Assembly (NCBI GenBank): GCA_964513075.1
Contig: CAZELR010000007.1
Span: forward strand, 22,208-86,207
DNA: 64,000 nt
Source: an uncultured Anaerolineales bacterium
Lineage (GTDB): Bacteria > Chloroflexota > Anaerolineae > CG2-30-64-16
Direction of reading: 5' to 3'
Part shown: positions 11,885-61,569 of the stretch, in pieces
How the letters are laid out: each line of letters begins with the position of its first letter
Numbering within the stretch: the stretch's first letter is position 1
The notes under the pieces: model-generated
The model's database searches: none
The model's input: only the letters and a program-made list of their open reading frames with translations
What the model was told of the DNA's origin: nothing
Translations under genes and position numbers: made by a program

Positions 11885-14269
11885 CTACTTCTGTAATGCC
11901 CGCCACACCTTCTCACTGGTGATGGGCATGCTGTCGATGCGGACACCGACAGCGTTGAAGACCGCATTGGCGATAGCGGGCGCAGTGGGCACCATGGGGT
12001 GTTCGCCCACGCCGCGCGCCCCGAAGGGGCCATCATCCTGTGGCACTTCCACGATGATGCTCTCGGTTTCGAGCGGCGCGTCCACCGCGGTGGCAATCCG
12101 GTAGTCGGTGAAGTTCGGGTTGCGCGGCACGCCGTTTTGTAGGATGATGCCTTCTAGTAGTGCGGTGCTCATGCCCTGCACCGCGCCGCCCTCCATTTGC
12201 GTCCGCACCATCTCCGGGTTGATGGCCCGCCCTACATCGTAGGCCGACACGATCTTCAGCACTTGGACCTCACCGGTTTCATCGTCCACTTCGACCTCGA
12301 CCGCCTGGCAGCCGGTGGTGAAGTGCACCACGGCACGCGGCCCCTGGCCGGTCTCCGGATCCAGCGGCGTCACGTATTCCGGCATGAACTTGCCTTGGGC
12401 CACCACTGGTCCGCCGACCCAAGTGCCATCTGGCCGCTGCATGCCGTAGATGACGATGTCCTTGAGGGCCACGGACTCCTCGCTTCTGTAACTGACGACC
12501 TCGCCGTCGATGATGTCCAGGTCGTCGATCTCTTCGCCCCACGCCTGGGCCACGGTTTGCAGGATCTGGGCCCTGGCGTTCTCGGCGGCCTGCAGCACGG
12601 CGTTGCCCATGCTCCAGGTGAGGCGGCTCGCCACCGTTTGCCACTCGTAGGGACTGTAGTCGGTGTCTACAGTATTGACGCGCACGTCTGCCACCTTAAC
12701 GCCCAGCCCTTCAGCCGCGAGCTGGGCCATGGCGGTGAGCGCGCCCTGGCCGATATCGACGCCGCCAATGCTGACCGTGGCGGTGCCATCCTCGTTCAGT
12801 CGGACGACCGCACTGGAGCCGGGATTGGGCGGCATGGCCGGCGCCTTCCACATGGCTGCCAGCCCTTTGCCTCGACGTTTGTGGTCCCCTTCTCCGGGGC
12901 GGACAGAGGTTGGGGGTGAGGTCCACCCGATCGCTTCGGCGGCCTTGCGGATGCACTGGCTGAGCCCGGTGGGATGCATCTTCATGCCAGTCAGCGTCTC
13001 ATCGCCATCTTTCAGGCAGTTAATCAATCGCACTTGCACCGGGTCGAGCCCCAGCTTCTGGGCCATCTGGTCGATGTGCTGCTCGATGCCCCAATGGATC
13101 TCGGGCATGCCGAAGCCGCGCATCGCACCGCCGATCGGATGGTTGGTGTAGACGCACATGCTGTCTACGTGGATGTTGGGCACGTAGTACGGGCCGGTGC
13201 CGCTGTAACCGGCCGCGCGGGTGATGTTGGTGCCGTACTCGGTGCTGGCGCCGCCATCCCAGTAGAAGCGATTGTGCATCGCCGTGATGCGCCCATCCCT
13301 GGTCATGCCCATCTTGATGTGGGCTACCAGCCCTTGGCGTACGAAGGTGGTGTAGAATTCCTCCTCCCGCGTCATGCGCAGCTTGACTGGCCGGCCTTTG
13401 GCGTGCATCGCCAGCGCGACAGCCGCGCCTTCTATGCTGATGCCTGCCTTGCAGCCGAAGCCGCCGCCCACGTAGGGCGTGATCACGCGCAGCTTGCTGT
13501 GGCCGATGTGCAGCGCTTTAGCGATCAGGTTGCGCTGGGCAAACGGCGACTGGCTGGAGGACCACAGCGTGATCTTGCCGTTGACATCCTGCTGGGCGAC
13601 GCAGACGTGGGTTTCCAGCGGCACGTGCTGGATGTGAGGCACGCGGTATTTGTGTTCGTAGATCAGGTCCGCCTCACCCCAGCCCTTCTCCATGTCGCCC
13701 TTACGCACTTTCATCCAGTTGGAGATGTTGGTGCCGGGTTGGGGGAAGATGAACGGCACGGCCTCATAGCTGGCCAGTTCTGGATGCACTAACGGCGCTT
13801 CCGGGCTGGCTCCGTATTCGGGATCGAACACGCCGGGCAGCGGCTCGTATTCGACTTCGATCAGCTCCAGTGCCTGCTGCGCGATCTCCGGCGTGTCGGC
13901 CGCAACCGCGGCCACTGCGTCGCCCACGTAGCGGACACGATCCAGGGCAAAGATGCGTCGATCCTTCAGGTACAGCCCGGTGTAGCCGGGGAAATCTTGC
14001 CCGGTCACCACAACCCGAACGCCCGGCAGTGCTCTGGCCCGGCTCACATCGATCCGTTTGATCAGACCATGGGGGATCGGGCTGTGCTTCAGCATGCCGT
14101 GCAGCAGGTTTTGGCCGAACTGCATATCGTCCACGTACGTGGCCGCGCCCGTCACCTTCTCGCGGCCCTCGATGCGTTGAGGGCTTGTGCCAATGAGTGA
14201 GTGTTTGGCGTGCTGCGTGCCAGGTGTCGCGTGTTCTGGTTCCGCTGATTTGCTGATTCGCTGGCTCAT
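11885..14269 (-). CDS. Xanthine-dehydrogenase-family molybdopterin-binding large subunit (CoxL/XdhA-like Mo-hydroxylase)
   Basis: 794 aa; aldehyde oxidase/xanthine dehydrogenase a/b hammerhead plus Mo-binding domains; active-site loop GGAMRGFGMPE (XDH-like, not the CODH AYRCSFR/AYRGAGR); overlaps the small-subunit stop by 4 nt. Confidence 0.9.
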   Translation of the reverse strand: MSQRISKSAEPEHATPGTQHAKHSLIGTSPQRIEGREKVTGAATYVDDMQFGQNLLHGMLKHSPIPHGLIKRIDVSRARALPGVRVVVTGQDFPGYTGLYLKDRRIFALDRVRYVGDAVAAVAADTPEIAQQALELIEVEYEPLPGVFDPEYGASPEAPLVHPELASYEAVPFIFPQPGTNISNWMKVRKGDMEKGWGEADLIYEHKYRVPHIQHVPLETHVCVAQQDVNGKITLWSSSQSPFAQRNLIAKALHIGHSKLRVITPYVGGGFGCKAGISIEGAAVALAMHAKGRPVKLRMTREEEFYTTFVRQGLVAHIKMGMTRDGRITAMHNRFYWDGGASTEYGTNITRAAGYSGTGPYYVPNIHVDSMCVYTNHPIGGAMRGFGMPEIHWGIEQHIDQMAQKLGLDPVQVRLINCLKDGDETLTGMKMHPTGLSQCIRKAAEAIGWTSPPTSVRPGEGDHKRRGKGLAAMWKAPAMPPNPGSSAVVRLNEDGTATVSIGGVDIGQGALTAMAQLAAEGLGVKVADVRVNTVDTDYSPYEWQTVASRLTWSMGNAVLQAAENARAQILQTVAQAWGEEIDDLDIIDGEVVSYRSEESVALKDIVIYGMQRPDGTWVGGPVVAQGKFMPEYVTPLDPETGQGPRAVVHFTTGCQAVEVEVDDETGEVQVLKIVSAYDVGRAINPEMVRTQMEGGAVQGMSTALLEGIILQNGVPRNPNFTDYRIATAVDAPLETESIIVEVPQDDGPFGARGVGEHPMVPTAPAIANAVFNAVGVRIDSMPITSEKVWRALQK

Positions 14270-14763
14270 AGTGCCGCCTCCCGTCCCGCACGTGCTGCCA
14301 TCTTGATCGCGTCGATGATGCGGATGTAGCCGGTGCAGCGGCAGAGGTTGCCCACCAGCGCCTCGCGGATCTCCGTGTCGGTGGGGTTAGGGTTGCGGTC
14401 CAGCAGCGCACGGGCATTCACCAGGATCCCCGGAGTGCAGAAGCCGCACTGCGTGGCGCCGGTGGCGATGAAGGCCTCTTGCAGTGGGTCGAGCTGGCTA
14501 TCCTGTGCCAGGCCTTCGATGGTAACGATCGTTGCCCCGTCGGCTTCCGGGGCCAGCACCATGCACGAGTTAACCGGTTCGGCATGGTCCGCGCCCGGCC
14601 AACGGAGCAGGACGGCGCACGCGCCGCATTCGCCGGCTTCGCAGCCATTCTTCGTGCCGGTGAGCACCAATTGTTCGCGCAGCACCTGAAGCAAAGTGTG
14701 GTGCGACGCCACGTCGAGGGTGTACGGCTCGCCGTTGACGGTGAGGTGTATGGTGTGGTTCAT
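14266..14763 (-). CDS. (2Fe-2S)-binding small subunit of Mo-hydroxylase (CoxS-like)
   Basis: 165 aa; CxxGxCGxC ferredoxin-like plus second 2Fe-2S helical-bundle cysteine motifs (CEAGECGACAV...CGFCTPG). Confidence 0.9.
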   Translation of the reverse strand: MNHTIHLTVNGEPYTLDVASHHTLLQVLREQLVLTGTKNGCEAGECGACAVLLRWPGADHAEPVNSCMVLAPEADGATIVTIEGLAQDSQLDPLQEAFIATGATQCGFCTPGILVNARALLDRNPNPTDTEIREALVGNLCRCTGYIRIIDAIKMAARAGREAAL

Positions 14764-15725
14764 GCGGCGCCTCCGGCGGACGAAGGACGAAGCGATCCTG
14801 CGGATCGGACGGAGGACGGAGTAGCTGCCAGTACGGCCTCGATTCCACGGCGAGCCAGCACCGCCACCATTGCCCGCCGGTAATCGGCGCTGGCGCGGAT
14901 ATCGGTGATCGGTCGGGCAGCGGCGGCAGCAAGCGCCGCGGCGCGCTGCACGCCCGCCGGCGAAGCATCGGCTGCCAGAGCTGCCTCAGCCTCCGGCGCA
15001 CGCAGGGGGGTCGGGGCCACCGCACCCAGGGCGATACGGACACTTTTGATTTTTGATTTTTGATTTCTGATTGCTTGCGGCTCTTCAAATCCGAAATCGG
15101 CAATCGGCAATCCGAAATCGATCCACACCGCCACACTGACCATCGAAATATCGCCGATCTTGGTGCGGCCCAGCTTGTTGAACGCGCCGCGTGCGCCGGC
15201 CGGGGCGGGGGGCAGGTGGATGGTGGTCAGGAACTCACCAGGCTGGAGCGCAGTGCGGCCCGGCCCGGCGAAGAAGTCCGCGATGGCGATGCGGCGGACG
15301 CCGGCGGGGCCGAAGGTCTCCGCGACCGCGTCCAGGCAGTAGAGCGCCGGCGCGGTGTCGGCCGCCGGGCTGGCGTTGCAGCAGTTGCCGCCGATGGTGG
15401 CCCGGTTACGGAGCTGGTAGGAGGCGACCGAGTTGCACGCTTGCGCCAGCAGATCGTAATGCTGAGCCACCAGCGGGTCAGTGGCCACCTGGTTCATGGT
15501 GCACGCGGCGCCGATGATCAGCCAGCCGTCCGCGCTTTGGCTGATCTCACGCATGCCGGGCAGGGACTTGAGGTCAACGACCCGCTGCGGTTTCACGAAC
15601 CCGCCGCGAGCCCGGATCAGCAGATCGGTGCCGCCCGAAAGAGGCCTGGTCACGCCGTTGCCGGTTGCTAACAGCGCGCTGGCCTCGGCGTAATCCTTAG
15701 GAATGATGTAATCGAAGGGTTGCAA
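14760..15725 (-). CDS. FAD-binding medium subunit of Mo-hydroxylase (CoxM-like), carrying an unusual in-frame repeat insertion
   Basis: FAD_binding_5 pattern (LQPFDYIIPKDY...GGTDLL); likely TTG start at 15725 with a GGAGG SD 8 nt upstream (the ORF-track start at 15791 is an extension); 4-nt overlap with coxS. Confidence 0.8.
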   Translation of the reverse strand: MQPFDYIIPKDYAEASALLATGNGVTRPLSGGTDLLIRARGGFVKPQRVVDLKSLPGMREISQSADGWLIIGAACTMNQVATDPLVAQHYDLLAQACNSVASYQLRNRATIGGNCCNASPAADTAPALYCLDAVAETFGPAGVRRIAIADFFAGPGRTALQPGEFLTTIHLPPAPAGARGAFNKLGRTKIGDISMVSVAVWIDFGLPIADFGFEEPQAIRNQKSKIKSVRIALGAVAPTPLRAPEAEAALAADASPAGVQRAAALAAAAARPITDIRASADYRRAMVAVLARRGIEAVLAATPSSVRSAGSLRPSSAGGAA

Positions 15726-15812
15726 CGTTGCGACCTCCGGACAGATTGGGTTGTAGTCTCGGGCCTTGTGCCCGCTGCAGGTAGTGTCCACGCCTCCAGG
15801 TGCTAGGCTGCG

Positions 15813-16244
15813 TTACTCCAGATCAGGCTTGGGCACGACCACCGTCACGTTTGGGAGCCGTGCAAAGTGCGATCGGTCGAAAGTGTAAGCTGTCGTCAAC
15901 CCTTGCACCGCCAACCAGGCTCCATTATATGCATCGATAAAGTCCACGTTCTTTTCAACAAATCCATTGATGCCTTGCAGCACCAAGTCGCCATTCGCGA
16001 TCTCCAGGCCGGGTGTGTTGAGGATAGCGAGCACTTTTTCCTGGATAGAGGCTTTGGACAGCTTATAGAACGATTCCAGCGTCCAGACGATCTCGGCGAT
16101 GACCAGGCTGTTGGTCACCAGGGTCAGTTCCCGGTTTGCGGCGCGTTTCAGCAGCGCGTCCACGGCATCGGCTTGCACGGGCACATCGTTCGTCAGATAG
16201 CGCAAGAATAGGTTCGTATCGGCGAAAACGCGTTCAGGCCGCAC
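15813..16244 (-). CDS. vapC: PIN-domain toxin (VapC family)
   Basis: 143 aa; MRPERVFADTNLFLRYL... PIN acidic residues (D9, E, D); overlaps the upstream antitoxin gene by 11 nt. Confidence 0.8.
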   Translation of the reverse strand: MRPERVFADTNLFLRYLTNDVPVQADAVDALLKRAANRELTLVTNSLVIAEIVWTLESFYKLSKASIQEKVLAILNTPGLEIANGDLVLQGINGFVEKNVDFIDAYNGAWLAVQGLTTAYTFDRSHFARLPNVTVVVPKPDLE

Positions 16245-16485
16245 CGTTCGCCACCTTTCGGGCGTGCGCCTCGATTACCTGTCGCCGGATGACGTCGAAA
16301 TCCTGTTCTCCGCTCACCGGTACGCTGCCGCGCAAATCGGTCAGCGTCTGCTGGAGCGGCTGCAGGATGATCTCGTCGCCGCGCCGCGTGAAGATGACGC
16401 GATCGCCTTCTTGCAGCTTCAAGAATTGACGGACCGGGCGCGGCAGCGTGATTTGACCACGACGTCCTACGGTGCTAGCGATCAT
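16234..16485 (-). CDS. vapB: AbrB/MazE/SpoVT-type antitoxin (VapB family)
   Basis: 83 aa; N-terminal swapped-hairpin motif (RRGQITLPRPVRQFLKLQEGDRV); classic toxin-antitoxin gene overlap with vapC. Confidence 0.75.
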   Translation of the reverse strand: MIASTVGRRGQITLPRPVRQFLKLQEGDRVIFTRRGDEIILQPLQQTLTDLRGSVPVSGEQDFDVIRRQVIEAHARKVANGAA

Positions 16486-24871: not shown

Positions 24872-24949
24872 CGTTGCTCCTGGGGGCCGGTTCCAGGTTG
24901 GCGGGTTGCAGGTTGCAGATCACAACCTTTGACCTGCAACCTGTAACCT

Positions 24950-25822
24950 TCAACCGCGCGACAGTGCGTTGATCCGATCGACGTGCGCCGGGTTGAACGC
25001 ATCACCGAACTTCGTCATGCCCATCGTCTCTTTGAGCTCCATCAGCTCGTCGTATTCAGCATCTTCCACGAACGCGACGCAGCGGCCGATCGAGCTTTCG
25101 CCGTCCACAAAGCGCCAGGGGAAGAATCCCACCGTGGCGCGACGGTTAAGCAGTAAGTCGATCTCGCCGCCGATGCACTCCGCGTGGATGATGTGATGCG
25201 GGAACATCTCGATGTGCATGAGCTGATACTTGGAATCGTCGAAGCACTCTTCCAGGCTTTGGCCGTACTTCTTGCGGAAGTGCGCGTCCGCCTCTTTGGC
25301 CTGGCGCGGCATCCACTGCCGGATGATGGTGTTCATAGGATGATCCGCGCTGCCGCAATCCACGCCGATCCATTTGATCTGCTTCCGTTTGGCCCATTCC
25401 GCAAACTCCCGATCGGGCCCGGGGTGCTGCACCATATAGCGGATCTCATCCGCCGTGGGCATGTCCCAGCCGAAGTGGTGATAACCGGTGTGAATGATCA
25501 GGATGTCGCCCTGGCGCACCTCGACGCGCTCCTCGATCATTTTGGCAGTGTAGACGTCGTAGTTGCCGCAGACATCCGAGAGGTCCACGATGGCTCCGGG
25601 CCCGACCAGGAAATCCATCTCCAGGCTGGCAATATCTTTGCCTGGCGTGAAGAAGTGGATCTCGCCGTCGAGATGCGTGCCCAGGTGGTTGGAGTGGGTG
25701 AGCAGCTGGCCGTTAGCCCCATTGGGAGCCAGTCGTTTGAAGTACTTTACCTGCAGCGGCTCATAGGTGGGCCACGCCGGCGTGCCGATGCCCAGAGGGA
25801 TGGTGAGGTCGATGATCTTCAT
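24950..25822 (-). CDS. Putative cyclase family protein (kynurenine-formamidase/isatin-hydrolase-like metal-dependent amidohydrolase)
   Basis: 290 aa; HxGTHxDxxxH-type motif (SNHLGTHLDGEIHF) characteristic of the cyclase/arylformamidase family. Confidence 0.75.
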   Translation of the reverse strand: MKIIDLTIPLGIGTPAWPTYEPLQVKYFKRLAPNGANGQLLTHSNHLGTHLDGEIHFFTPGKDIASLEMDFLVGPGAIVDLSDVCGNYDVYTAKMIEERVEVRQGDILIIHTGYHHFGWDMPTADEIRYMVQHPGPDREFAEWAKRKQIKWIGVDCGSADHPMNTIIRQWMPRQAKEADAHFRKKYGQSLEECFDDSKYQLMHIEMFPHHIIHAECIGGEIDLLLNRRATVGFFPWRFVDGESSIGRCVAFVEDAEYDELMELKETMGMTKFGDAFNPAHVDRINALSRG

Positions 25823-26992: not shown

Positions 26993-29900
26993 ATGATCTC
27001 TGATCCGCAGGATCGCATTCGCTCCGTCATGCTTCATGCCATTGTCTCTGTAGCAGCCATGTGCTTGATCGGTTTGTTGCCGGCTTTACTCGTGAGCGCC
27101 GGCTTTCCGGCCACGACCCCCGCACCGCTTTCGCTCCTCACGTTGCCTGATCCGATCACGATTATCGGCAGCCCGCTGCGTGTTGCCGTTGGATCGGACA
27201 GCAGTATCCAGGCCTACTACAATGGCCTTGGCCAGGTGTACGGCTGGCAGGATGGCAGCGCGGATAGTGGAGTCTGGCTGCACATCGGCAGCGATGTCTA
27301 TGGGCCGGACGCCTGTTTCAGCGGACGCTTAGCCACCAACATGGTCACCGTGCGGCCGTGGACTGCGTTAAGCCATAGCGGACCCACCGGCTCCGGCGCC
27401 GCCGCCGATCCGTGGGTCATCACGACGGTCCTGGGCGCGGGATCGAGCGGCGTACAGGTGACCCAGCGCGTCTCCTACGTCAACGGCCAGGACTACTTCC
27501 GCCTGAAATGGGATGTTGCCAACGCTTCCGGGGCGCCCATTACAGCCAACCTGTTTCATGCCGCGGACAGTTACTTTGGTAACGATGACTATGGTCGCGG
27601 CTACTATGACCCGGTCAGCGGCGCCGTGGGCGGCTATATTCCCAGCGGCCCGTGGTACATGCTGTTCGTGCCCGCGACGCCCGCCACTGCTTACAAAGAG
27701 GACTGGTACTTCAACATCTGGGCGGGTATCGGGTATTGCGGCGACACCGTCTCGTGTCCGGTCTCGGGAGCTTGCTCCCCTGGGTCGGGGTTTGACAACA
27801 CCATCGACACCAGCCCGGCTGGCGTTGACAACGGTTTCGGGCTGCAATGGCAGCGGACGATCGCGTCGGGCGCTGGCGCAACAGTCGGAGACTGGTGGAC
27901 GTTCGGCAGCATTCCCACCCTGCCCGGCGAGGAGCCGACGCCCACCCCTACAGCCACGCGCACGCCGACGGCGACCAACACCAGCACATATACCCCTACG
28001 CGGACGCCCACCGCGACGGTAACGCCTACCGCAACCGTCACCCCTGGCGGCTGCGGTGCACCGACCGAGACGGGAACGATCGTCAGAACGTTGGCCTATC
28101 ACCAGCTTACAGCCTTCGCCAGCCGGCCGGGCGTGCATACCCGGGGCAATAGCCCTTCGATCCTGAGCGTAGATGGCAGCCGGGCCGCGTTTTTGGTGGG
28201 CGGGTCACCGGCGCATGTCTGGGTAATCGATGCGGACGGCACAGGATTGCGCGAGATTAATACCCAGCCCGGTGGGGATTATACGAACGTCGATATCAGC
28301 GCTGACGGCTCGAAGGTGCTCTCCTGGGATGAAAGTGACGGCGGAGAGGTTCGCATGGTCAACGCCGACGGCAGCGACGCGCATGTCGTCTTATCGTACT
28401 CGAGTGGACGCGGTTACTTTCGCCTCTCGCCCGACGGTACGAAGGTTTATTTTGCGTTCACCTGGTATCTCAGCTACGGCGGGCAGAGCTACAACCCCGG
28501 TCTGTTTGTCATCAACGCCGACGGCACCGGCCTGCGCCAGATCTTAGATCGCGCCAGCGTCCATGCGCTCTTCGGCAAGCCGGTGCCTGAGCTGCAGTTT
28601 TACTGGCATGGCCCGCCCTTCGATGTGTCGGACGACGGCAGCCATATCGTGCTTCAGGTGCTCGTGCCGGATGTCGGTTGGCCCATCATGCGCGTGAACG
28701 GTGACGGAAGCGATTTGCAGGCGTACGCTTTGTTCCCGAATAACGCACATCCCGATGTGGGGAACCTGGGCATCAGCGGCGACGGTCGGGTGGCCTTCTA
28801 TGAAGTGATGACCGACCCGTGGGAGCTGGGCGTGTTCAACTGGGATGGCTCGGGCAAGCGCGCACTGGCCAGTGGCCTGGGCGGGCTCAACACCCAGGGC
28901 GAGGTCGTTCAGTTGACATATGATGGCACGAAGCTGTCCTATGGCTCGTTGAATCGCCTCTACAACACCGATGGCTCCGCTGTGCTGCAGTTGGCGGCCA
29001 CCGGCCCCACCTTGAGTGGCGACCCTCCCCTGATGGTCGGCAACTGGGGGATGTACCGCAGCAGCATGAACCGCGACGCCACGCGCTTCCTGTTCACCTT
29101 CGACAACAACACCTGGGTGGACGGCGCGCTCGTGCCTGAGCAGTTGGGTATTCTGGCGCTGAACCCGGCCAGCCTGGGGCAAGCGCCCACCCTTGCAGAT
29201 CCCAAGATCGCGCCGTTCTACTTGGTGCGCGGAGATGGCTCGACGACCACCTTCAGCGCCCGATCGAGTTCGGCTAACATGCATCTGCGCACCAACGCCG
29301 TCGTGTTTCGAAGCGGGCTGGAGGTGAACAGCAATATCGTCAACGATGCCGTGTTGTACGATGATGGCAGCAACGGTGACATCACCGCAGGGGATGGCCG
29401 CTTCACCAACAGCTTTGTCCGAGCCAACTCCGACGCTGTGATCGGTCCGCACACGGTGCGCATGAAGACCGAGGTGCGCGCTTCCGACGGCCGGCGCCAC
29501 GCCACCGCGCTCGATGTGGCGCAGCTCGACGTCGTCCTTGCCGTGCCGCCGGGGGTGGGTCCCTGCACGCCCACGCCGACGCCTACCGTAACCGTCACCC
29601 CTGCCGCGTGCGGCCTACCGACCGAGGCGGGAACGGTCGTGCGCACGCTGGCCTATCACCAGCTCACATCCTTTACCGCCCAGCCGGGTGTGCACCCCGG
29701 CAAGAGGGCCTCCATCCTCTCTGCAGATGGCAGCCGCGCCGCCTTTGTTGTGAAGAGTGCTCCTTCCCACGTTTACGTCGTCAATGCGGATGGCACGGGG
29801 CTGCGCGAGGTAGACACGCTCTCCGGAGACTGGGACCCAAAAGTGGACATCAGCGCCGACGGGTCAAGGGTGCTCTACTGGGACGGCGTTGTGGCGTACA

Positions 29901-32900
29901 CGATCAACGCCGACGGCAGCAACCGGCGCCAGGTCATTGAGCTTGGCGCCTATCCGTACTTCCGCCTTTCTGCCGACGGTGCGCAGGTTTTCTTTGCGAT
30001 TGACAGGGATGTGCGACCGAACGTGACGTACAATGCCGGACTGTACGTGATAAATGCCGATGGCAGCGGCCTCCGCCGGATCGTGGACCCGGCTCAGGTG
30101 CACGCGCTTTTCGGCAAGCCGATCCCTGGACTGCCGTTCTCTTGGTGGGGTGCGGCGTTTGACGTCTCCAGTGATGGGAGTCGCATCGTCTTCAACGTGA
30201 TCGACTACGATGGGCATGACCGGATCCTGCGCGTGAACAGCGACGGCAGCGGTTTGCAGGAATACTCGCTGTCAACGACCTCCTCCGTGAACAACCTGGG
30301 GATCAGCGGTGATGGCAGGATCGTGTTTTACCAGGTGTGGAGGATCGACCACGACGAACTGGGTGTGTTCAACTGGGACGGCTCAGGCCAGCGGGTGCTC
30401 GACACCGTGGGGGGCTGGAACGGCACCGAGGGTGAGGTTGTGCAGCTATCATACGACGGTTTGAAGCTCAACCATGGCTCCCGGAACCGCCTCTACAACA
30501 CCGACGGCAGCGGCGTGCTGCAACTGGCGGCCTACGGAGCCACCTCGACCGGCGATCCGCCGCTGATGGTGGGCTCGGGTGACGGGGGCTTCCAAAGAAG
30601 CAGCATGAGCCGCGACGCCACACGGTTCCTCTTTTTCTTCAACCTGGGCTACGTAGATGGCGCGCCGACGCCAGCGCAACTGGGCTTGCTGGAGCTGAAC
30701 CCGGCCAGCCTGGGCCAGGCGCCCGCCCTGGCCGATCCTAAGATCGCACCCTCTTACGTGGTGATCGGGGACTCGAAGACCAGCATCAGCGTCCGTATGA
30801 ACACGACCAACCCCCACGTCCGCACCAACAGCGTGGCATTACGCAACGGGGTGGAGGTGAACAGCAACGTTGTCTATCAGGCCGTGCTCTACGATGACGG
30901 CAGCTACGGCGACGTAACGGCGGGCGACGGCCGCTTCACCAACAATACGGTTGGGGCCAGCGCCAGCGCGCTGCTCGGCCCACACATTGTGCGCGTGAAG
31001 ACTGAGGTGCGTGCGGCCGATGGCCGCCGCTACGCCACTGCGCTTGACGTAGCCCAGCTCGACGTCGTCACTGAGATCCCCCCGGGCATGGGCCCCTGCA
31101 CGCCCACGCCGACGCCCACAAGCACGCGTACGCCAACGCACACCCCCACTCCGACGCGTACGCCGACGCGCACGCCGATGCCTACGGCCACATCCACCCC
31201 GACCCGAACGTCTACACCCACCGTGGGTCTGCCCGACCTGACCGTAAGTCGGCTGGAGGTGAATCAGGCCATCCAGAACGACGCCAACAGCATCCCGCTG
31301 ATTGCGTCCAAGCGGACGGTCGTACGCGCCTACTTGGGGTTGAGCGCTTCCATGCCCATTGGCACGGTTACCGGCCGGTTGCGGGGCTATCGCGGGAGCA
31401 CGTCCTTGGGCACGGTCGCGCCGTTCAACCCAAGCGGCCGTATCACGGTAGTCCAGCCGGCCGACTGGCGGCAGATCAACCACACCCTGAACTTTGAAGT
31501 GCCGTTCGGATGGCTGACCGGGGCTGTGCGGCTGGAAGTTGAAGTCAATAACGACCGCGCGGTGCCGGAGAACAACTACGGCAACAACACGACGTCGGTG
31601 GACGTCACCTTCGTGGACGGCGGCGACCTGCGCATTGCCTGGCTGCCCATCCGCTACGTCACCCCTGGCTACACTGGGCCGGCCGAACCTTCCGCCCGCA
31701 TCGCCAAGGGCCAGGCCTGGCTGGTCGCGACCTACCCGGTCAGCCACACGCGCGTTAAATACTACCCCTGGCCGGGCATCACCTGGGGCGGCGACGTGAA
31801 TTTCGGCACCGGCGGCATCAAGCTGCTTAACTATCTAAACCGGTTGCTTCAGCTCAGCCAGACCAGCCCTCGACCCGACCATGTCTACGGCTGGCTGCCC
31901 CCCGGTGTCTTTGGAGGCAACGGCCTGGCGTGGCTGCCCGGTCAGACCGCCTTCGGCAACGACACCGATGGCCGTTGGCGGCGCACCTTGACACACGAGA
32001 TCGGGCACAACCGCAACATCGGCCACTGGGATGCGACGATCCGGCTTCATGGCTTTGATGTCGCCGCGCGTGAGGTGCGCGAGGACACCCGGCTCGACTT
32101 CATGGTGCCCGGTCGATTGGAGAGTGAAGCATGGGTCGCGCCGGAGATATACACCTACCTGCATGAGCACATGAGCATGGCCGCTGACCAGGACGCGAGC
32201 CCAACGCGGGCCGTGGCTAACGAATACCTCCTGACTTCCGGCTTGATCAATCAGGATGGTACGGCCAGCTTCGATGTATTCTACCGCCAGGCGCAGACTG
32301 ACCCGTTGGACAACCCGCTGGCCGGGACGGCCTACTGTCTGGAGCTGTACGACGCTGGAAGCCTGCAGGCGACGGCACATCGTCTGCTGTCAAGCACCTG
32401 CTTCGATATCTCGTACGACTTTGGTGACAGTGCAACCCCCATGACGACCGCGCCCTTCGCATTGACCGTGCCCTTCCCTCCCACAACCCGGCAGATCGTG
32501 CTGAAACATGGACCTGCGGTTGTCGCCACGCGCACGGTCAGCAACAGCGGTCCGGTGATCTGGGTCTCTCTATCTGGCGGAGGCATGGTCAGGACGGTCA
32601 ACTGGACGGCAAACGACTTCGACGGCGATCCCCTGAGCTACTCGGTGCTCTATAGCAATGACAACAAGCAATCGTGGTTCGCCGTGGCGACCGATCTCGC
32701 CGCCACCACATACGGCCTGGACACGAGCACGCTGCCCGGCGGGACGAATGCCTTTGTGCGCATTCTGGCCAGTGATGGCGTCAACACGGGCCAGGCGGAC
32801 GCAGGGCCGTTTGCTGTCAACGACAAAGAGCCCACCCCTTTGATCAGTGCGCCGGCCGATGGGAGTACCTTCGCCCCCGGTGAGAACGTGCTGCTGGTGG

Positions 32901-33130
32901 GTGATGGCTTCGACCTGGAGGATGGTTCGCTGCCGGATAGCCGTCTTATCTGGTCTTCCGATCGGGATGGCGTGCTGGGCATTGGCCGCACGGTGGAACG
33001 AAACGATCTCAGCGCAGGAACACATCATGTCACCCTGACGGTGGGAGATAGCGCCGGCAACCAGGCGACTGCCACCATCATGCTAACAATCCGTCGGCCG
33101 GCGACGTATCTTCCACTGATCCTGCGATGA
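26993..33130 (+). CDS. Giant (2045-aa) modular surface/secreted protein: N-terminal anchor, unknown domain, PT linker, two tandem ~500-aa PD40/TolB-like beta-propeller plus beta-sandwich modules, PT linker, CARDB-like domain, Zn-metalloprotease-like domain (HEIGHNRNIGH), C-terminal beta domains
   Basis: Single uninterrupted ORF with an AAGGAGG SD; Pro/Thr linkers at ~27931-28044, ~29563-29602 and 31093-31224; repeated xDGS propeller blades; HExxHxxxxxH at 31995-32027; PDLTV...ENNYGNN CARDB-like signature. Confidence 0.85.
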   Translation: MISDPQDRIRSVMLHAIVSVAAMCLIGLLPALLVSAGFPATTPAPLSLLTLPDPITIIGSPLRVAVGSDSSIQAYYNGLGQVYGWQDGSADSGVWLHIGSDVYGPDACFSGRLATNMVTVRPWTALSHSGPTGSGAAADPWVITTVLGAGSSGVQVTQRVSYVNGQDYFRLKWDVANASGAPITANLFHAADSYFGNDDYGRGYYDPVSGAVGGYIPSGPWYMLFVPATPATAYKEDWYFNIWAGIGYCGDTVSCPVSGACSPGSGFDNTIDTSPAGVDNGFGLQWQRTIASGAGATVGDWWTFGSIPTLPGEEPTPTPTATRTPTATNTSTYTPTRTPTATVTPTATVTPGGCGAPTETGTIVRTLAYHQLTAFASRPGVHTRGNSPSILSVDGSRAAFLVGGSPAHVWVIDADGTGLREINTQPGGDYTNVDISADGSKVLSWDESDGGEVRMVNADGSDAHVVLSYSSGRGYFRLSPDGTKVYFAFTWYLSYGGQSYNPGLFVINADGTGLRQILDRASVHALFGKPVPELQFYWHGPPFDVSDDGSHIVLQVLVPDVGWPIMRVNGDGSDLQAYALFPNNAHPDVGNLGISGDGRVAFYEVMTDPWELGVFNWDGSGKRALASGLGGLNTQGEVVQLTYDGTKLSYGSLNRLYNTDGSAVLQLAATGPTLSGDPPLMVGNWGMYRSSMNRDATRFLFTFDNNTWVDGALVPEQLGILALNPASLGQAPTLADPKIAPFYLVRGDGSTTTFSARSSSANMHLRTNAVVFRSGLEVNSNIVNDAVLYDDGSNGDITAGDGRFTNSFVRANSDAVIGPHTVRMKTEVRASDGRRHATALDVAQLDVVLAVPPGVGPCTPTPTPTVTVTPAACGLPTEAGTVVRTLAYHQLTSFTAQPGVHPGKRASILSADGSRAAFVVKSAPSHVYVVNADGTGLREVDTLSGDWDPKVDISADGSRVLYWDGVVAYTINADGSNRRQVIELGAYPYFRLSADGAQVFFAIDRDVRPNVTYNAGLYVINADGSGLRRIVDPAQVHALFGKPIPGLPFSWWGAAFDVSSDGSRIVFNVIDYDGHDRILRVNSDGSGLQEYSLSTTSSVNNLGISGDGRIVFYQVWRIDHDELGVFNWDGSGQRVLDTVGGWNGTEGEVVQLSYDGLKLNHGSRNRLYNTDGSGVLQLAAYGATSTGDPPLMVGSGDGGFQRSSMSRDATRFLFFFNLGYVDGAPTPAQLGLLELNPASLGQAPALADPKIAPSYVVIGDSKTSISVRMNTTNPHVRTNSVALRNGVEVNSNVVYQAVLYDDGSYGDVTAGDGRFTNNTVGASASALLGPHIVRVKTEVRAADGRRYATALDVAQLDVVTEIPPGMGPCTPTPTPTSTRTPTHTPTPTRTPTRTPMPTATSTPTRTSTPTVGLPDLTVSRLEVNQAIQNDANSIPLIASKRTVVRAYLGLSASMPIGTVTGRLRGYRGSTSLGTVAPFNPSGRITVVQPADWRQINHTLNFEVPFGWLTGAVRLEVEVNNDRAVPENNYGNNTTSVDVTFVDGGDLRIAWLPIRYVTPGYTGPAEPSARIAKGQAWLVATYPVSHTRVKYYPWPGITWGGDVNFGTGGIKLLNYLNRLLQLSQTSPRPDHVYGWLPPGVFGGNGLAWLPGQTAFGNDTDGRWRRTLTHEIGHNRNIGHWDATIRLHGFDVAAREVREDTRLDFMVPGRLESEAWVAPEIYTYLHEHMSMAADQDASPTRAVANEYLLTSGLINQDGTASFDVFYRQAQTDPLDNPLAGTAYCLELYDAGSLQATAHRLLSSTCFDISYDFGDSATPMTTAPFALTVPFPPTTRQIVLKHGPAVVATRTVSNSGPVIWVSLSGGGMVRTVNWTANDFDGDPLSYSVLYSNDNKQSWFAVATDLAATTYGLDTSTLPGGTNAFVRILASDGVNTGQADAGPFAVNDKEPTPLISAPADGSTFAPGENVLLVGDGFDLEDGSLPDSRLIWSSDRDGVLGIGRTVERNDLSAGTHHVTLTVGDSAGNQATATIMLTIRRPATYLPLILR
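28046..31100 (+). repeat. Intragenic tandem duplication: two ~1.5-kb modules (28046-29602 and 29603-31100) at roughly two-thirds aa identity by eye
   Basis: Both copies start GCGAPTETGTIVRTLAYHQLT / ACGLPTEAGTVVRTLAYHQLT and end TALDVAQLDVV..PPG.GPCTPTPTPT; collinear throughout. Confidence 0.75.
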
Positions 33131-41286: not shown

Positions 41287-41892
41287 ATGGAGACCAAACG
41301 AGGTTCGAACAGCGGAGCGCGCTGGATCCAGCGCGGCGTGATCGCCATCGCAGTCGTGGCCCTGTTGGCGGGGGCGGCTTATATGTGGGGCAACCGCTTG
41401 AGCGCTGACACACTACCAGCGAGCAGCCAGAGAGCGGCGGAAGCTTCGGCTTCGAGTTACGGCAGTTTGCGCGGGATGTCGGCCGTGCGGGCGCTCGATG
41501 CCGCAGCCGCATTGTCAGCCAATGCCTCGGCCTCCCGGTGGGCTGGGCTGGGCGCGCAGTATCAGAAACTGAACGCAGCGAACCTGCAACGCGGGCTCGC
41601 GGCCTCGGCGGCGCGCTGGACGGCGCTGGGCGCGCAGCATGAGAAACTGGAAGCAGCGAATCTGCAACGCGGGCTCGCGGCCTCGGCGGCGCGCTGGACG
41701 GCGCTGGGTGAGCATTATCAGAAACTGGAAGCTGCGCAGCCCGCCATGGGTGTGCCACTCGAATTAGGGCAGCAATACCTCCACGAGGGAGCATCAGTCA
41801 ACATGGCGGCCCTCAAGGCCGTTGCGCCGGGCCTCTCGACCGTTGCGCCGGCCAGCGGAGAGGCCGCACGAATGGTAATCGGGTTGCCGTGA
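41287..41892 (+). CDS. Membrane-anchored hypothetical protein with 3x26-aa tandem repeats
   Basis: N-terminal TM; repeats RWxxLGxQ(Y/H)(Q/E)KLxAANLQRGLAASAA encoded by ~2.9 copies of a 78-bp DNA repeat (41527-41753). Confidence 0.5.
   Translation: METKRGSNSGARWIQRGVIAIAVVALLAGAAYMWGNRLSADTLPASSQRAAEASASSYGSLRGMSAVRALDAAAALSANASASRWAGLGAQYQKLNAANLQRGLAASAARWTALGAQHEKLEAANLQRGLAASAARWTALGEHYQKLEAAQPAMGVPLELGQQYLHEGASVNMAALKAVAPGLSTVAPASGEAARMVIGLP
41527..41753 (+). repeat. 78-bp tandem repeat (~2.9 copies) inside the CDS
   Basis: Direct visual alignment of three consecutive 78-nt units with few substitutions. Confidence 0.7.
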
Positions 41893-41994: not shown

Positions 41995-44499
41995 TCACCG
42001 CAACACCGCATCCACCTGCACCTCAGCCTGGCCGGCAGGCGGTAACGGCACGATGTCGCCCGCCACCGGACGGCCGTCCACGGTCAGACTGACAGCGTTG
42101 CCGGGGCCGCGGCGCTCCACCGTAATGCGATACGTGACCCCGCGGAAGACGCGTGTGGCGCTGAAGCCGGGCCACTCCGCCGGGATGACCGGCGCGACGC
42201 GCAGGCCCTGGTGTTCCGGCCGGATGCCCAGGATCCACTGGGTGATAGCGACGTAGTTCCACGCGGCCGTGCCGCTCAGCCACGAGTTCTTGGCCTCGCC
42301 GTGGGTCGGCGCATCCCGCCCTGCGATCATCTGGGCATAGACATAAGGTTCGCAGCGGTGCACCTCACTGATCGCCTCGCGCTTGGATGGATTGATCCGC
42401 AGATAGTAGTCCAGCGCTCGGTCGCCGCGACCCAGCTTCGCCTCCGCGGCCATGATCCACGGATTGGTGTGGCAGAAGACCCCGGCGTTTTCTTTGTAGC
42501 CGGGGGGATAACTGGAGATCTCGCCCAGGTTCAGGTAGTAATGCGAGTATGCCGGCTGCTGCAGCACGATGCCGTGAGGCGTTGCCAGCCGCTCGGCCAC
42601 TGCATCCAACGCCTGCCGCGCCCGTCCATCGGCGACCCCGATCCCCGCCAGCACGCACATCCCCTGCGGCTCGATGAAAATCTGTCCCTCGGTGCACTGC
42701 GCAGACCCTACCGGCTCTCCGAACGCATCGTACGCGCGGCGGAACCACGCGCCATCCCAACCATGCGCATCCACTACCGCTGTCATCTGCGCCGCGAGCG
42801 ACCGGTAAAAGGTTGAAGGTTCAAGATTGAAAGATAGTGGTCCTGCACCTTCAACTTTAGGCCTTGAACCCTCAATCGTCTCACCAATTCCTGCCATCTC
42901 CTGCGCAGCGAGCACGAACAAGCCCGCGATAAACACCGATTCGGCCACCGTGCCTTCCCGGTTGGTCGTGGTTTGAAACGACTCGCCGGGGGTCTCAGAG
43001 AAGCAATTGAGATTCAGGCAATCGTTCCAGTCGGCGCGGCCGATGAGGGGTAAGCCGTGCGGCCCCAGGCGATCCAGCGTATATTGGATGCATCGTTCGA
43101 GGTGTTCATAGAGCGGCGTCTCGGTGCCGGGCTGATTGTCATAAGGCACAGGCTCGGCCAGGATGCCCAGGTCTCCCGTCTCCTTCAGATAGGCTGCCAC
43201 GGCCAGGATGAGCCAGAGCGGGTCGTCGTTGAAGTTGGAGCCCACCGCATCGTTTCCGCGCTTGGTGAGCGGCTGGTATTGGTGATACGCGCCGCCGGTG
43301 GGCAGTTGGGTCGCGGCCAGGTCCAGGATGCGTTCGCGCGCTCGGGCAGGAATCATGTGCACGAAGCCCAACAGGTCCTGGTTGGAGTCGCGGAAGCCCA
43401 TGCCGCGGCCGATGCCCGATTCGAAGTACGATGCTGACCGCGACATGTTGAACGTGATCATGCACTGGTACGCGTTCCAGATATTTACCATGCGGTTGGT
43501 GTGGGGGTCGGGCGTATCTGCCTGGTACTTATTGAGCAGCGCCTCCCAATAGCCGCGCAACTCGTCTAGGGCCGCGGCCACAGCATCGGGGTCCAGGAAC
43601 CTGCGCAAGATCGGCAGCACACCCTGCTTGTTGAGGGTCTGCGAACCCGGCGGGTCGAACTTGGCGTCGCGCTGGTTCTCGTGATAGCCCAACACGAACA
43701 CGATGGTGCGGCTGGCGCCCGGCGCCAGGGTCAGCCGGACATGGTGCGAGCCGATGGGCGCCCAGCCATGCGCGATGGAATTAGCGGATGTCCCGCGTTC
43801 CACTGCCAGCGGCTCGTGCCAGCCCCGGTAGGGACCCAGGAACGCCTCGCGCTGCGTGTCGAACCCGGCCAGTGGCTCGGAACAGGCGAAGTAAGCGAAA
43901 TGGTCCCGCCGCTCTCGGTATTCAGTCTTGTGATAGATGACCCCGTCGACGACCTCGACCTGGCCGGTGGAGAAGTTGCGCTGGAAATTGGTCGCGTCGT
44001 CCCACGCCTCCCACAGGCAAAACTCCACCGCCGAAAAGATGCTGAGTTCGGCAGCGGTCTCTCGCGTGTTGGTCACGGTCAGCCGCCACACCTCCAGGTT
44101 ACAGCCCAGCGGCACGAAATAGGTCGTTTCCGCGCGGATGCCGGCATGAGATGAGCCGATGACGGTGTAGCCCAGGCCATGGCGGCATTTATACTCGTCC
44201 AATGGCGTGCGGGTGGGTTGCCACGAAGGCGACCAGTAGGGGCGGGCCTCGCACCCGCCCGCGTCATCATCCTCCCGGATGTAAATGTAACGTCCGCCGG
44301 AGTCGAGAGGGACGTTGTTGTAGCGATAGCGGGTGATGCGGCGCAGCCGCGCGTCGCGATAGAACGAATAGCCGCCGGCCGTGTTGGAGATCAGGCCGAA
44401 GTAGGCCTGGTCGCCCAGGTAGTTGATCCAGGGCAGTGGGGTATCGGGGCGGGTGATCACATACTCGCGACGACCGTCATCGAAGTGTCCGTAACGCAT
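41995..44499 (-). CDS. GH94 glycoside phosphorylase (cellobiose/cellodextrin/chitobiose phosphorylase)
   Basis: 834 aa; full-length GH94 (GT36) architecture, N-terminal MRYGHFDDGRREYVIT..PDTPLPWINYL. Confidence 0.9.
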   Translation of the reverse strand: MRYGHFDDGRREYVITRPDTPLPWINYLGDQAYFGLISNTAGGYSFYRDARLRRITRYRYNNVPLDSGGRYIYIREDDDAGGCEARPYWSPSWQPTRTPLDEYKCRHGLGYTVIGSSHAGIRAETTYFVPLGCNLEVWRLTVTNTRETAAELSIFSAVEFCLWEAWDDATNFQRNFSTGQVEVVDGVIYHKTEYRERRDHFAYFACSEPLAGFDTQREAFLGPYRGWHEPLAVERGTSANSIAHGWAPIGSHHVRLTLAPGASRTIVFVLGYHENQRDAKFDPPGSQTLNKQGVLPILRRFLDPDAVAAALDELRGYWEALLNKYQADTPDPHTNRMVNIWNAYQCMITFNMSRSASYFESGIGRGMGFRDSNQDLLGFVHMIPARARERILDLAATQLPTGGAYHQYQPLTKRGNDAVGSNFNDDPLWLILAVAAYLKETGDLGILAEPVPYDNQPGTETPLYEHLERCIQYTLDRLGPHGLPLIGRADWNDCLNLNCFSETPGESFQTTTNREGTVAESVFIAGLFVLAAQEMAGIGETIEGSRPKVEGAGPLSFNLEPSTFYRSLAAQMTAVVDAHGWDGAWFRRAYDAFGEPVGSAQCTEGQIFIEPQGMCVLAGIGVADGRARQALDAVAERLATPHGIVLQQPAYSHYYLNLGEISSYPPGYKENAGVFCHTNPWIMAAEAKLGRGDRALDYYLRINPSKREAISEVHRCEPYVYAQMIAGRDAPTHGEAKNSWLSGTAAWNYVAITQWILGIRPEHQGLRVAPVIPAEWPGFSATRVFRGVTYRITVERRGPGNAVSLTVDGRPVAGDIVPLPPAGQAEVQVDAVLR

Positions 44500-49758: not shown

Positions 49759-49860
49759 AGGACCTCGTGAATAGGACCTCGTGATGCGTGGTGCGTAGTG
49801 CGTAGTGCGTAGTGCGCCGTCATTCTGAGCGGGTTAAAGGCGCAACGCTCGTCACGGCGC

Positions 49861-49975
49861 AACTCCAGCGAAGAATCTCGTCATTCGTCATTCGTCATTC
49901 GTCATTCGTCATTCGTCATTCGCCATTCGCCATCCGCCATCCGCCATTCGCCATTCGCTATCCGCTATCCACCGC
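49861..49975. repeat. Heptanucleotide microsatellite: (TCATTCG)5 followed by CCATTCG/CCATCCG/CTATCCG variants, ~14 units
   Basis: Read directly from the sequence; located in the 200-nt gap upstream of the M50 protease start (49758) and downstream of the ABC exporter stop (49958). Confidence 0.8.
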
Positions 49976-61329: not shown

Positions 61330-61425
61330 GATGACGCTTAAGCATAAGTAACCTTATCTTGCCTATCTTGCCCATCTTGCTATGCAGGTCGTTAGGGGCA
61401 AGATAGGCAAGATGGGCAAGGTGAG
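61330..61425. repeat. Imperfect inverted repeat built from ATCTTGCC/GGCAAGAT heptamer-like units (3 direct units facing 4 inverted units)
   Basis: CTTATCTTGCCTATCTTGCCCATCTTGC ... GGCAAGATAGGCAAGATGGGCAAGGTGAGGATGAGCAAGATGGGCAAC; lies just 3' of the flotillin stop (61570) and 5' of the islet promoter. Confidence 0.6.
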
Positions 61426-61569
61426 GATGAGCAAGATGGGCAACCATCCTATGGCATGGAGTCGGAGGCTTGTATTGTCGTTTGGGTTGCGGTGCACCGA
61501 CAAGAGGCCCTGGAAATCAAAGATGAAATCCAAGGCCTCTCTGTTTCTGCTTTCGTTCCGGGAGTCGAG

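Follow-up and report, generated by a model that had tools for sequence, protein, structure and literature searches.

A heptamer-periodic inverted repeat carried in frame by the FAD subunit gene of an Anaerolineae molybdenum hydroxylase

Why should a GC-rich gene carry a short, AT-rich inverted repeat within its reading frame, and is such a repeat a recent arrival, a tolerated passenger or a selected part of the gene? The question is raised by a segment at 15040-15130 of a 64,000-nt stretch of DNA from an uncultured Anaerolineales bacterium (contig CAZELR010000007.1, positions 22,208 to 86,207; hereafter, the window), where it lies in a minus-strand gene (14760-15725) for the flavin adenine dinucleotide (FAD)-binding medium subunit of a molybdenum hydroxylase of the CoxM/XdhB family. 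An initial annotation, made from the sequence alone, read the segment as ~25 extra, lineage-specific residues contributed by a small repetitive insertion in a surface loop, possibly recent and similar to a MITE (miniature inverted-repeat transposable element). Our analysis indicates that the segment is probably a resident, partly decayed, heptamer-periodic inverted repeat, which has been carried in frame in the FAD subunit since before this Anaerolineae group diverged and which is not selected as a peptide. The segment reflects neither damage nor an error of assembly nor the recent arrival of a transposon, and what the gene encodes is most likely an intact flavoprotein with a longer, floppy loop.

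Tandem Repeats Finder resolved the segment (...ACTTTTGATTTTTGATTTTTGATTTCTGATTGCTTGCGGCTCTTCAAATCCGAAATCGGCAATCGGCAATCCGAAATCGATCC...) into two arrays, TTTTGAT repeated 4.1 times at 15044-15072 (95% match) and AATCGGC repeated 3.7 times at 15095-15120, which are mutually inverted (25-nt arms 72% complementary, with a 13-nt core at 92%). Read on the coding (minus) strand, the element consists of a 5' arm with the units GATTTCG, GATTGCC, GATTGCC, GATTTCG and GATT (15088-15119), a spacer or hairpin loop (TGAAGAGCCGCAAGC; 15073-15087) and a 3' arm with the units AATCAGA, AATCAAA, AATCAAA, AATCAAA and a final A (15044-15072). The segment has a GC content of 0.44-0.52, compared with 0.70-0.77 in its flanks, and the element contains no GGG or CCC run. 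Over 15044-15120, where the second array can also be written as (AATCSGM)x4.5, GC is 40-44%, compared with ~70% on either side. The initial description of an AT-rich, GATT/AATC-repetitive inverted repeat in a GC-rich gene was therefore accurate, with the Tandem Repeats Finder arrays, the inverted arms and the drop in GC all agreeing. The 18-mers formed by two and a half units occur three times each, at this site only, where shuffled sequences lead one to expect 0.00 and 0.12, and the window holds four period-7 arrays compared with 0.1 in shuffles; no further copy of the segment's unit was found anywhere else in the 64-kb window. As mRNA, the window copy is predicted to fold at -18.2 kcal/mol (z = -0.13), no better than shuffled sequences; only the antisense strand folds better than they do (-23.8 kcal/mol, z = -2.5).

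The host gene starts with TTG at 15725, 7 nt behind a GGAGG motif, and encodes a protein of 321 amino acids with the Pfam domains FAD_binding_5 (4.5e-47) and CO_deh_flav_C (6e-19) and a match to the solved CoxM subunit 1zxi_C (E = 1e-35). Outside the loop and the C-terminal tail, an AlphaFold2 model of the protein has the CoxM fold, with a template modelling (TM) score of 0.82 to 1n60_C. The TGA stop codon overlaps the ATG of the downstream 2Fe-2S subunit gene in the junction sequence ATGA, the gene for the molybdopterin subunit follows, and a xanthine/uracil permease gene lies upstream of the operon. The motif AYXCSFR, found in true CO dehydrogenases, is not present in the window's large subunit. 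Because of the missing motif and the neighboring permease, we regard the enzyme as a generic xanthine-dehydrogenase-family hydroxylase, for which 'CoxM-like' is only a family label.

The 120 best homologues of the flavoprotein all came from Chloroflexota/Anaerolineae assemblies, and an alignment of 47 of them revealed a sole internal hypervariable region, from GDISxVSVAV to RIALGAVGPTP. In the window, the expanded loop takes up codons W201-V229 of the protein (WIDFGLPIADFGFEEPQAIRNQKSKIKSV; 15039-15125, minus strand). The solved CoxM structure has 17 residues fewer in this loop, more distant homologues have a loop of 13-14 residues (LGWPDxxAPSGxxW or FGFPDGTAPSGYRF), and 8 of 108 close homologues have a repeat-free loop of 11-17 residues. 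Since the loops of the repeat-free homologues and of 1zxi_C are correspondingly shorter, the true net addition is 15-18 residues relative to repeat-free homologues with a loop of 11-14 residues (17 relative to 1zxi_C), fewer than the ~25 first proposed. In the AlphaFold2 model, which was built from the 47-sequence alignment, residues 206-222 have a predicted local distance difference test (pLDDT) score <50 and lie between the β-strands 192-203 and 228-234; in this model, the repeat would lengthen a β-hairpin turn in the C-terminal domain, forming a disordered and permissive loop.

The reading frame is unbroken in all 108 close homologues, which shows, at the level of predicted genes, an element that is read through into the protein while the gene stays intact. 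Both the maintained frame and the peptide quoted in the initial annotation (FGLPIADFGFEEPQAIRNQKSKIKS) proved correct, and the translated open reading frame (ORF) predicts tryptic peptides that span the loop (...VAVWIDFGLPIADFGFEEPQAIR). We rejected an intein, an intron and programmed frameshifting as descriptions of the segment, having found no catalytic motifs, a continuous frame in the 108 homologues and no X XXY YYZ slippery site.

Orthologous copies date the element. A peptide of the window type, W[IV]DFGLPI[AS]DFG..E....IRNPQSxIRNV, is encoded by 45 of the 108 close homologues (hereafter, family A), and we compared the DNA of 12 family-A genes, with the window in the comparison set. The element is exactly 90 nt long with its junction codons, and sits at the same codons, in 11 of the 12 genes, and the related genomes that carry it have flavoproteins of 73-87% identity. 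Its common layout has four GATTKCS units on one side of a ~20-nt spacer and four SGMAATC units on the other. At the junctions (TGG-NTN/GATTTCG ... CGCAAT/GTN-CGY) there is no direct repeat of the kind left by target-site duplication. The spacer differs by 0.50-0.63 per site, at least as much as third codon positions of the gene (0.43), and because it has diverged like neutral sites, the element is as old as the divergence of the family-A genes and neither recent nor lineage-specific, contrary to what had been suggested. The refuting evidence that the initial annotation asked for is therefore only half present: segments of the same length are found in orthologues, but these are also GC-poor (0.46-0.57 compared with ~0.70 in the flanks) rather than of normal composition, and arrays of the same unit occur at many other loci, as described below.

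The marked AT-richness of the window copy has a more recent origin. Its closest relatives are L201 (87% protein identity) and L202 (83%), and these three copies fold at -18 to -21 kcal/mol, compared with -24 to -45 kcal/mol for the others, of which seven of nine lie below -32 kcal/mol. From CGCAATC, the 3' arm has drifted to CAAAATT/CAGAATC in L201, to CAAGATC/CAAGAAC in L202 and to AAAAATC, three times over, in the window, so that the two relatives represent intermediate stages of the decay. This drift lowers the GC content of the segment from 0.53-0.57 to 0.41. Because the units of the 3' arm mutated from CGCAATC to AAAAATC in the window's clade, the AT-richness is the product of late decay in one arm.

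We used the codon alignment of the 12 genes to separate selection on the peptide from selection on the nucleotides. Within the loop, codon positions 1, 2 and 3 differ by 0.26, 0.25 and 0.27, with a ratio of nonsynonymous to synonymous differences (pN/pS) of 0.69, compared with 0.15, 0.11 and 0.43 and a pN/pS of 0.24 in the rest of the gene. Because substitutions are equal across codon positions and pN/pS is 0.69 rather than 0.24, the loop peptide shows no sign of selection by these comparisons; pN/pS in the C-terminal tail of the flavoprotein, which is also repeat-encoded, is 0.85.

The nucleotides of the arms tell a different story from those of the spacer. Across the nine undecayed copies, differences per site amount to 0.12-0.16 in the arms and 0.50 in the spacer, and the 5' arm is well kept among orthologues (pairwise difference 0.14), equally at all codon positions. 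Third positions in the arms differ by 0.095 (nine genomes) or 0.175 (all 12), compared with 0.43 in the rest of the gene and 0.60-0.63 in the spacer, and none of 5,000 random samples of an equal number of third positions from the gene was as low as the arms. GC content at third positions (GC3) is 0.49-0.51 in the arms and 0.83 in the gene. Synonymous sites in the arms are therefore conserved four to five times better than in the surrounding gene, a sign that the repeats are not just slippage debris but are under constraint as DNA or RNA. In most lineages the arms are held at the nucleotide level, whatever they encode, and in the window's clade this constraint has lapsed.

We surveyed the orthologous operons of 80 Anaerolineae genomes and the DNA around them (551 kb), together with the window, for arrays of similar design. 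This revealed 76 arrays of period 7, compared with 4, 26, 21 and 3 of periods 5, 6, 8 and 9, respectively, and 44 of 99 arrays had an inverted partner (two reverse-complement units within 120 nt), compared with 4 in a positional control. Arrays concentrate immediately upstream of coxM, within the loop, at the 3' end of coxM and at the coxS/coxL junction, and are nearly absent from other coding sequence. Their units have a GC content of 0.49 compared with 0.63 for the surrounding DNA, AAT occurs in 24 of 50 units (5 expected), and AATC occurs in 24% of arrays compared with 3.7% of random heptamers. In ~600 kb of Anaerolineae DNA, the commonest array length was 4-5 units, although the detection threshold disfavors 3-unit arrays and may under-count them, and 102 of 117 arrays (87%) were without a G-run, with one present in the other 15. 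By these measures, the element in the window belongs to a class of GC-poor tandem heptamers, rich in AAT/AATC, that typically run to 4-5 units and are often arranged as head-to-head hairpins.

Relatives have filled the same CoxM loop with at least five unit types among the 108 close homologues. In addition to family A, these include a GGACGAN/NTCGTCC hairpin (family B; 39 of 108 by peptide pattern), which was confirmed in the DNA of L011 (-40 kcal/mol), L026 (-46 kcal/mol) and L025, as well as GGAAGCT arrays (6), the 8-mers GGAGACNC or CACGGAAC (8) and AGGAGTC (2). Other parts of the enzyme are affected too: AGTCAGG and AATCCGM arrays make up an N-terminal extension of the large subunit (CoxL) in L013 and L020, and the flavoproteins of the window, L003 and L026 end in a C-terminal tail built of AAGGACG-type units. 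Units are also shared between unrelated hosts, with AATACGC serving as the CoxM-loop unit of L001 and forming a loop of a glycoside hydrolase family 94 (GH94) protein in L211. It follows from the survey and these cases that Anaerolineae genomes hold many tandem-heptamer hairpins, which shape protein termini and permissive loops.

How might a resident repeat of this kind form and persist? We propose replication slippage as the process by which the arrays would form and change, with the complementary arms produced and preserved through intrastrand template switching. Template switching is able to generate hairpins with long perfect stems and to sustain them, compensatory changes being made in one step (Monttinen and Loytynoja 2022, PMC8794818); by building stems and altering both sides in one event, it would explain the variant units that are mirrored in order across both arms in L026 and L159. 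In coding DNA, a one-unit step would shift the frame, and only length-neutral turnover or three-unit steps would survive. Because one-unit (7-nt) steps frameshift, both the fixed length of 90 nt and the spread of the mutant unit AAAAATC along the window's 3' arm would be expected. Arrays would persist only where they are tolerated, which confines them to positions upstream of genes, gene junctions, terminal tails and a small number of permissive loops.

Several points weigh against this account. The slippage and template-switch events are inferred, none having been directly observed. A few recurring units (AATCCGC/AATACGC, GGACGAN, GGAAGCT and AGGAGTC) appear at unrelated sites, which fits the insertion of a pre-formed element better than a purely local origin. 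Neutral concerted evolution alone does not lower divergence between lineages, and the conserved arms therefore point to a constraint that slippage and template switching leave unnamed. Finally, when the loop is masked, a neighbor-joining tree of the flavoprotein makes sister taxa of sequences with different loop types; this could reflect replacement, recombination or a poorly resolved tree, and as we distrust its resolution, we draw no conclusion on gains versus replacement. Because the arm constraint and the unit recurrence lack an explanation, we give some weight to two further readings, one for a functional nucleic-acid element and a smaller one for a mobile element.

The first of these, which we consider possible but rather unlikely, casts the hairpin as a nucleic-acid element with a function in the operon, whether as an mRNA or DNA structure or as a protein-binding array with heptad spacing; it would adjust decay, ribosome transit or the relative expression of the subunits, with the protein loop as a by-product. 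It accounts well for arm synonymous sites that are conserved (0.095 versus 0.43; 0 of 5,000 samples) against the GC3 bias of the gene (0.5 versus 0.83) and beside a freely varying spacer. Within each unit, variation is lowest in the paired GATT/AATC cores, the folding energies of most family-A copies lie at -32 to -45 kcal/mol, and the hydroxylase operon has clusters of sister arrays at its 5' and 3' ends and its intercistronic junctions. In Xanthomonas, moreover, GGGNATC arrays lie within 50 bp of gene starts or stops and are transcribed (PMC4692102). Such a function is harder to reconcile with the window copy, which has lost its structure on the mRNA strand (z = -0.13), with folding energies that have no consistent strand preference and with the 8 of 108 close homologues that are repeat-free and the others that carry unrelated units.

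Comparative folding of the 12 family-A sequences does not decide the matter. RNAalifold predicted 19 pairs, essentially 4-bp GATT/AATC helices between three variable positions per unit, of which only 2 show compensatory change (covariation term +0.53), but the arms barely vary and the test is accordingly without power. Pairing is thus inseparable here from plain sequence conservation, and the data fit selection for either one. Against such a function, too, no Rfam 15 family matched the window at gathering thresholds, nor did any match 14700-15400 at E <= 1, and a promoter/terminator scan of 14500-16000 found no consensus within the element. An AT-rich intragenic promoter was likewise unsupported, the same scan having found nothing in the element. 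We dropped a role for CsrA or for an internal Shine-Dalgarno sequence as post hoc, GGA/TCC being only ~2-fold enriched (22 compared with 11.7).

We also scanned metagenomes with GATTKCSGATTKCSGATT, which revealed at least 120 loci, on contigs with a GC content of 0.32-0.73, and no CoxM relative was encoded among the matches listed. An exact inverted partner was present in 9 of 134 metagenome clusters (among the matches listed), each with a different spacer. Location inside a long open frame is too permissive as coding evidence in GC-rich metagenome contigs, and we used only cases confirmed by Pfam. In these, same-unit arrays run in frame in a DnaE2-like polymerase (SEIRNPKSE...DFGFRISDF), where they lie between its NTPase and finger domains, in the linkers of a polyketide synthase (PKS; DFGLPMLDFGL...SAICNLQSK), in a TPR protein and in an FG-GAP/T9SS protein. 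On one 45% GC metagenome contig (L157, 1025-6082), a PKS has several interdomain linkers of GATT/AATC heptamers, including ENPQSKIENLQSKI, which suggests that these repeats contribute to linker evolution in megasynthases.

This dispersal bears on the second reading, in which the segment represents one copy of a small mobile element, non-autonomous and similar to a MITE, to the palindromic elements of Rickettsia (RPEs) or to the paired repetitive extragenic palindromes known as REPINs, that inserts at random and is kept only at permissive sites, the CoxM loop having been hit repeatedly. We think it doubtful, less so for the at least five unrelated unit families in one loop among close homologues and for the recurrence of the same units in unrelated genes and phyla (at least 120 metagenome loci; GH94, DnaE2-like and PKS genes). 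In-frame palindromic elements in unrelated genes are described for Rickettsia (PMC10969869), and the lack of a target-site duplication would suit Y1 transposases that recognize hairpins, as for REPINs (PMC3116915). But the same lack, combined with that of defined termini, is also what one would hold against an insertion, and hairpins of the same unit all differ in their spacers. The five hairpins of the 64-kb window have five different units, none repeating that of the CoxM loop, the family-A copy is as old as its genes by spacer divergence, and the Xanthomonas counterparts are not tied to mobile elements (PMC4692102). What survives of the initial MITE-like description is a repeat-derived, hairpin-capable, in-frame segment in a permissive loop (modelled as disordered) that belongs to a dispersed class; the hallmarks of a MITE do not survive, there being no target-site duplication and no second copy of the unit in 64 kb.

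It is very unlikely that selection instead acts on the extra residues as part of the protein, for example as a flavoprotein loop that binds a partner or serves assembly, with the DNA repeats incidental to it. The constant length (30 codons in 11 of 12 genes) and the recurring motif DFGLPI[AS]DFG...IRNPQSxIRN might suggest one, but constant length is explained by the frame, as a 7-nt step would frameshift, and the same motifs appear in unrelated proteins simply through the shared unit. Moreover, substitutions fall equally on the three codon positions (pN/pS 0.69 versus 0.24), the most conserved sites are the synonymous ones, the region is modelled as disordered, and equally close homologues have unrelated sequence or nothing there. 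Least of all do we favor a contingency (phase-variation) locus in which 7-nt slippage would switch the flavoprotein and its translationally coupled downstream subunits off and on, since three perfect AAATCAA units in the window's coding sequence, the overlap of the coxM stop with the coxS start and the heptanucleotide-driven phase variation described in one account of Haemophilus (PMC8262952) are outweighed by the low copy number, a host that is a housekeeping-type catabolic enzyme, the absence of any out-of-frame length variant among the 108 homologues and the judgment of Rehm et al. (PMC4692102) that such a role is unlikely for the related Xanthomonas repeats.

With the segment read as a resident, partly decayed repeat of a larger class, other sites in the window fall into place beside it. 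The C-terminal tail of the flavoprotein (ATPSSVRSAGSLRPSSAGGAA; 14763-14825, minus strand) is heptamer-encoded around the palindrome CGATCCTGCGGATCG, with GGACGAA twice at 14778-14792 and GGACGGA twice at 14807-14821 on the plus strand; the repeats and pN/pS mark it out, residues 305-321 have pLDDT <50 in the AlphaFold2 model, and the tail varies in length or is absent in homologues. The large subunit has an N-terminal extension (MSQRISKSAEPE...; 14243-14263, minus strand) with the degenerate repeats CAGCGAAT, CAGCAAAT and CAGCGGAA, which is variable or absent in homologues. A further in-frame hairpin, with the unit AAGGTTG/CAACCTT and the peptide ETIEGSRPKVEGAGPLSFNLEPSTF, lies at 42809-42870 (minus strand; -32 kcal/mol, z -3.0) in a GH94 cellobiose phosphorylase gene (41995-44499). 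There the repeat makes an insertion of ~12 residues relative to the solved 3qde_A, in an otherwise poorly aligning stretch, and this helix-turn region is expanded in ~40 of 95 homologues with repeat-derived peptides of the same motifs.

Three more sites are intergenic. Inverted GGTTGCA arrays directly follow the stop codon of a cyclase-family gene (24885-24955, minus strand; -35.9 kcal/mol, z -3.6), a terminator-like position, though without a T-run. A cluster at 49757-49970, to which no strand is assigned, comprises ATAGGACCTCGTGA x2, TGCGTAG x4.6, TCGTCAT x11 and CATCCGC x7.7 between M50 peptidase and ABC-transporter genes, with the CATCCGC array reaching the last codons of the transporter. 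The most stable hairpin in the window (-45.5 kcal/mol, z -6.2) is formed by the inverted 9-mer arrays TATCTTGCC x2.9 and GGGCAAGAT x5.7 at 61355-61443 (minus strand), between two minus-strand genes. Including the CoxM loop, the window has five sites of this hairpin/array design, each with its own unit.

The window also contains repeats of other kinds. A plus-strand ORF at 41287-41892 (201 amino acids) carries a 78-nt (26-residue) tandem repeat present 2.4 times (RWAGLGAQYQKLNAANLQRGLAASAA), and a Pro/Thr-rich linker (TPTPTPTSTRTPTHTPTPTRTPT...) at 31098-31203, within an ORF of 2,045 amino acids (26993-33130), was scored as a hexamer-based repeat and is an ordinary low-complexity linker. Next to the hydroxylase operon, directly upstream, a PIN-domain toxin gene (15813-16244, minus strand) is overlapped by an 83-residue ORF (16234-16485, minus strand), a candidate antitoxin gene that matches the MazE-type one occupying the syntenic position of L201 and L204. 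This toxin-antitoxin arrangement is kept beside the operon in L201, L204 and L210. In L201, the xanthine/uracil permease upstream of the operon (704-2087) was called as two genes of 257 and 216 amino acids, which may reflect a frameshift or a pseudogene.

Beyond the window, one may tentatively go further, to a view that we rate as well short of even chances: heptamer hairpins would form a distinct, phylum-spanning class of nucleic-acid elements, built as two convergent arrays of about four NNNAATC-like units, whose arms are actively maintained even in coding sequence, by selection for structure, by a heptad-reading factor or by dedicated propagation, and which have repeatedly seeded protein loops, linkers and tails (CoxM, CoxL, GH94, DnaE2 and PKS), with a four-unit preference unrelated to G-quadruplexes. 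For the host gene itself, the repeat is an ordinary, tolerated feature, and its wider interest lies in the class-level conservation of the arms and in the sharing of units.

How does this class compare with known repeat systems? Of the long simple repeats in many bacteria, heptamers are the most frequent kind (Mrazek et al. 2007, as summarized in PMC4679880), a class that takes in the GGGNATC repeats discussed below, and a literature search found no report of such heptamer repeats in Chloroflexi or Anaerolineae, which is not proof of absence. Among cyanobacterial short tandemly repeated repetitive (STRR) heptamers and the TAACTGA repeats of Beggiatoaceae, one or a few fixed units per genome form direct arrays that are almost all intergenic (PMC4679880). 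The present class resembles both in placing tandem heptanucleotides next to start codons and in having inverted sets, rare ones in STRR and TAACTGA repeats (PMC4679880); unlike TAACTGA, which carries stop codons, the present units contain none on the coding strand. Repetitive extragenic palindromes (REPs) are single 20-40-nt imperfect palindromes with a GTAG/CGTC tag, present in hundreds of near-identical extragenic copies and associated with a RAYT transposase (PMC3116915; PMC3733652). Our element shares with REP/REPIN elements two inverted short repeats around a less conserved spacer, the hairpin and the lack of a target-site duplication, but its arms have no GTAG/CGTC tag, and it has one copy in the 64-kb window. 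Compared with a MITE, the inverted arms consist of tandem heptamers and there is no target-site duplication. The mirrored variant units are consistent with hairpins made by template switching (PMC8794818), a mechanism shown for eukaryotic RNA genes and only inferred here.

The closest precedents are the RPEs of Rickettsia and the GGGNATC heptamer repeats of Xanthomonas and Nostoc. RPEs, in the account reviewed in PMC10969869 (after Ogata et al. 2000), are ~100-150 bp long and have a family consensus, with dozens of recognizable copies per genome. As far as that account describes them, they resemble the present elements in bringing palindromic repeat DNA, in frame and translated as additional residues, to fold-compatible positions of unrelated genes (housekeeping genes in Rickettsia; here CoxM, GH94, DnaE2-like, PKS, TPR and FG-GAP), but the element here consists of tandem heptamers that add 45-54 nt net, and its copies share only the unit, differing in spacers, termini and lengths.

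The GGGNATC heptamers are dispersed through the genome, mostly near gene starts and stops, with a preference for about four units; each Xanthomonas genome has 70-75 convergent pairs capable of forming stem-loops, 7-11% overlap ORFs, and there is no link to insertion sequence elements (Rehm et al. 2015, PMC4692102). The parallels include 7-nt units joined head to tail, the AATC core (SGMAATC/GATTKCS here, with the consensus NNNAATC), four units per arm in our element and 4-5 typically in the class, and convergent pairing in 44 of 99 arrays. The class is likewise sited near gene starts and stops, although the CoxM-loop copy itself lies 600 nt inside an ORF. Unlike GGGNATC, the units here are mostly without G-tracts, and the G-quadruplex rationale for four units is therefore inapplicable; the preference for 4-5 units in such arrays, with the caveat that our detection threshold disfavors those of three, weakens that explanation for the four-unit preference in Xanthomonas and Nostoc as well. 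The unit also differs here from locus to locus, the hosts are Chloroflexota (Anaerolineae), permissive loops are a hot spot, and the CoxM copy is in frame and conserved among orthologues, with nucleotide-level constraint on both arms. Dispersed heptamer arrays that form hairpins are thus already known, and what distinguishes those described here is the absence of G-tracts, the locus-specific units, the Chloroflexota hosts, the loop hot spot and the conservation of synonymous sites in frame.

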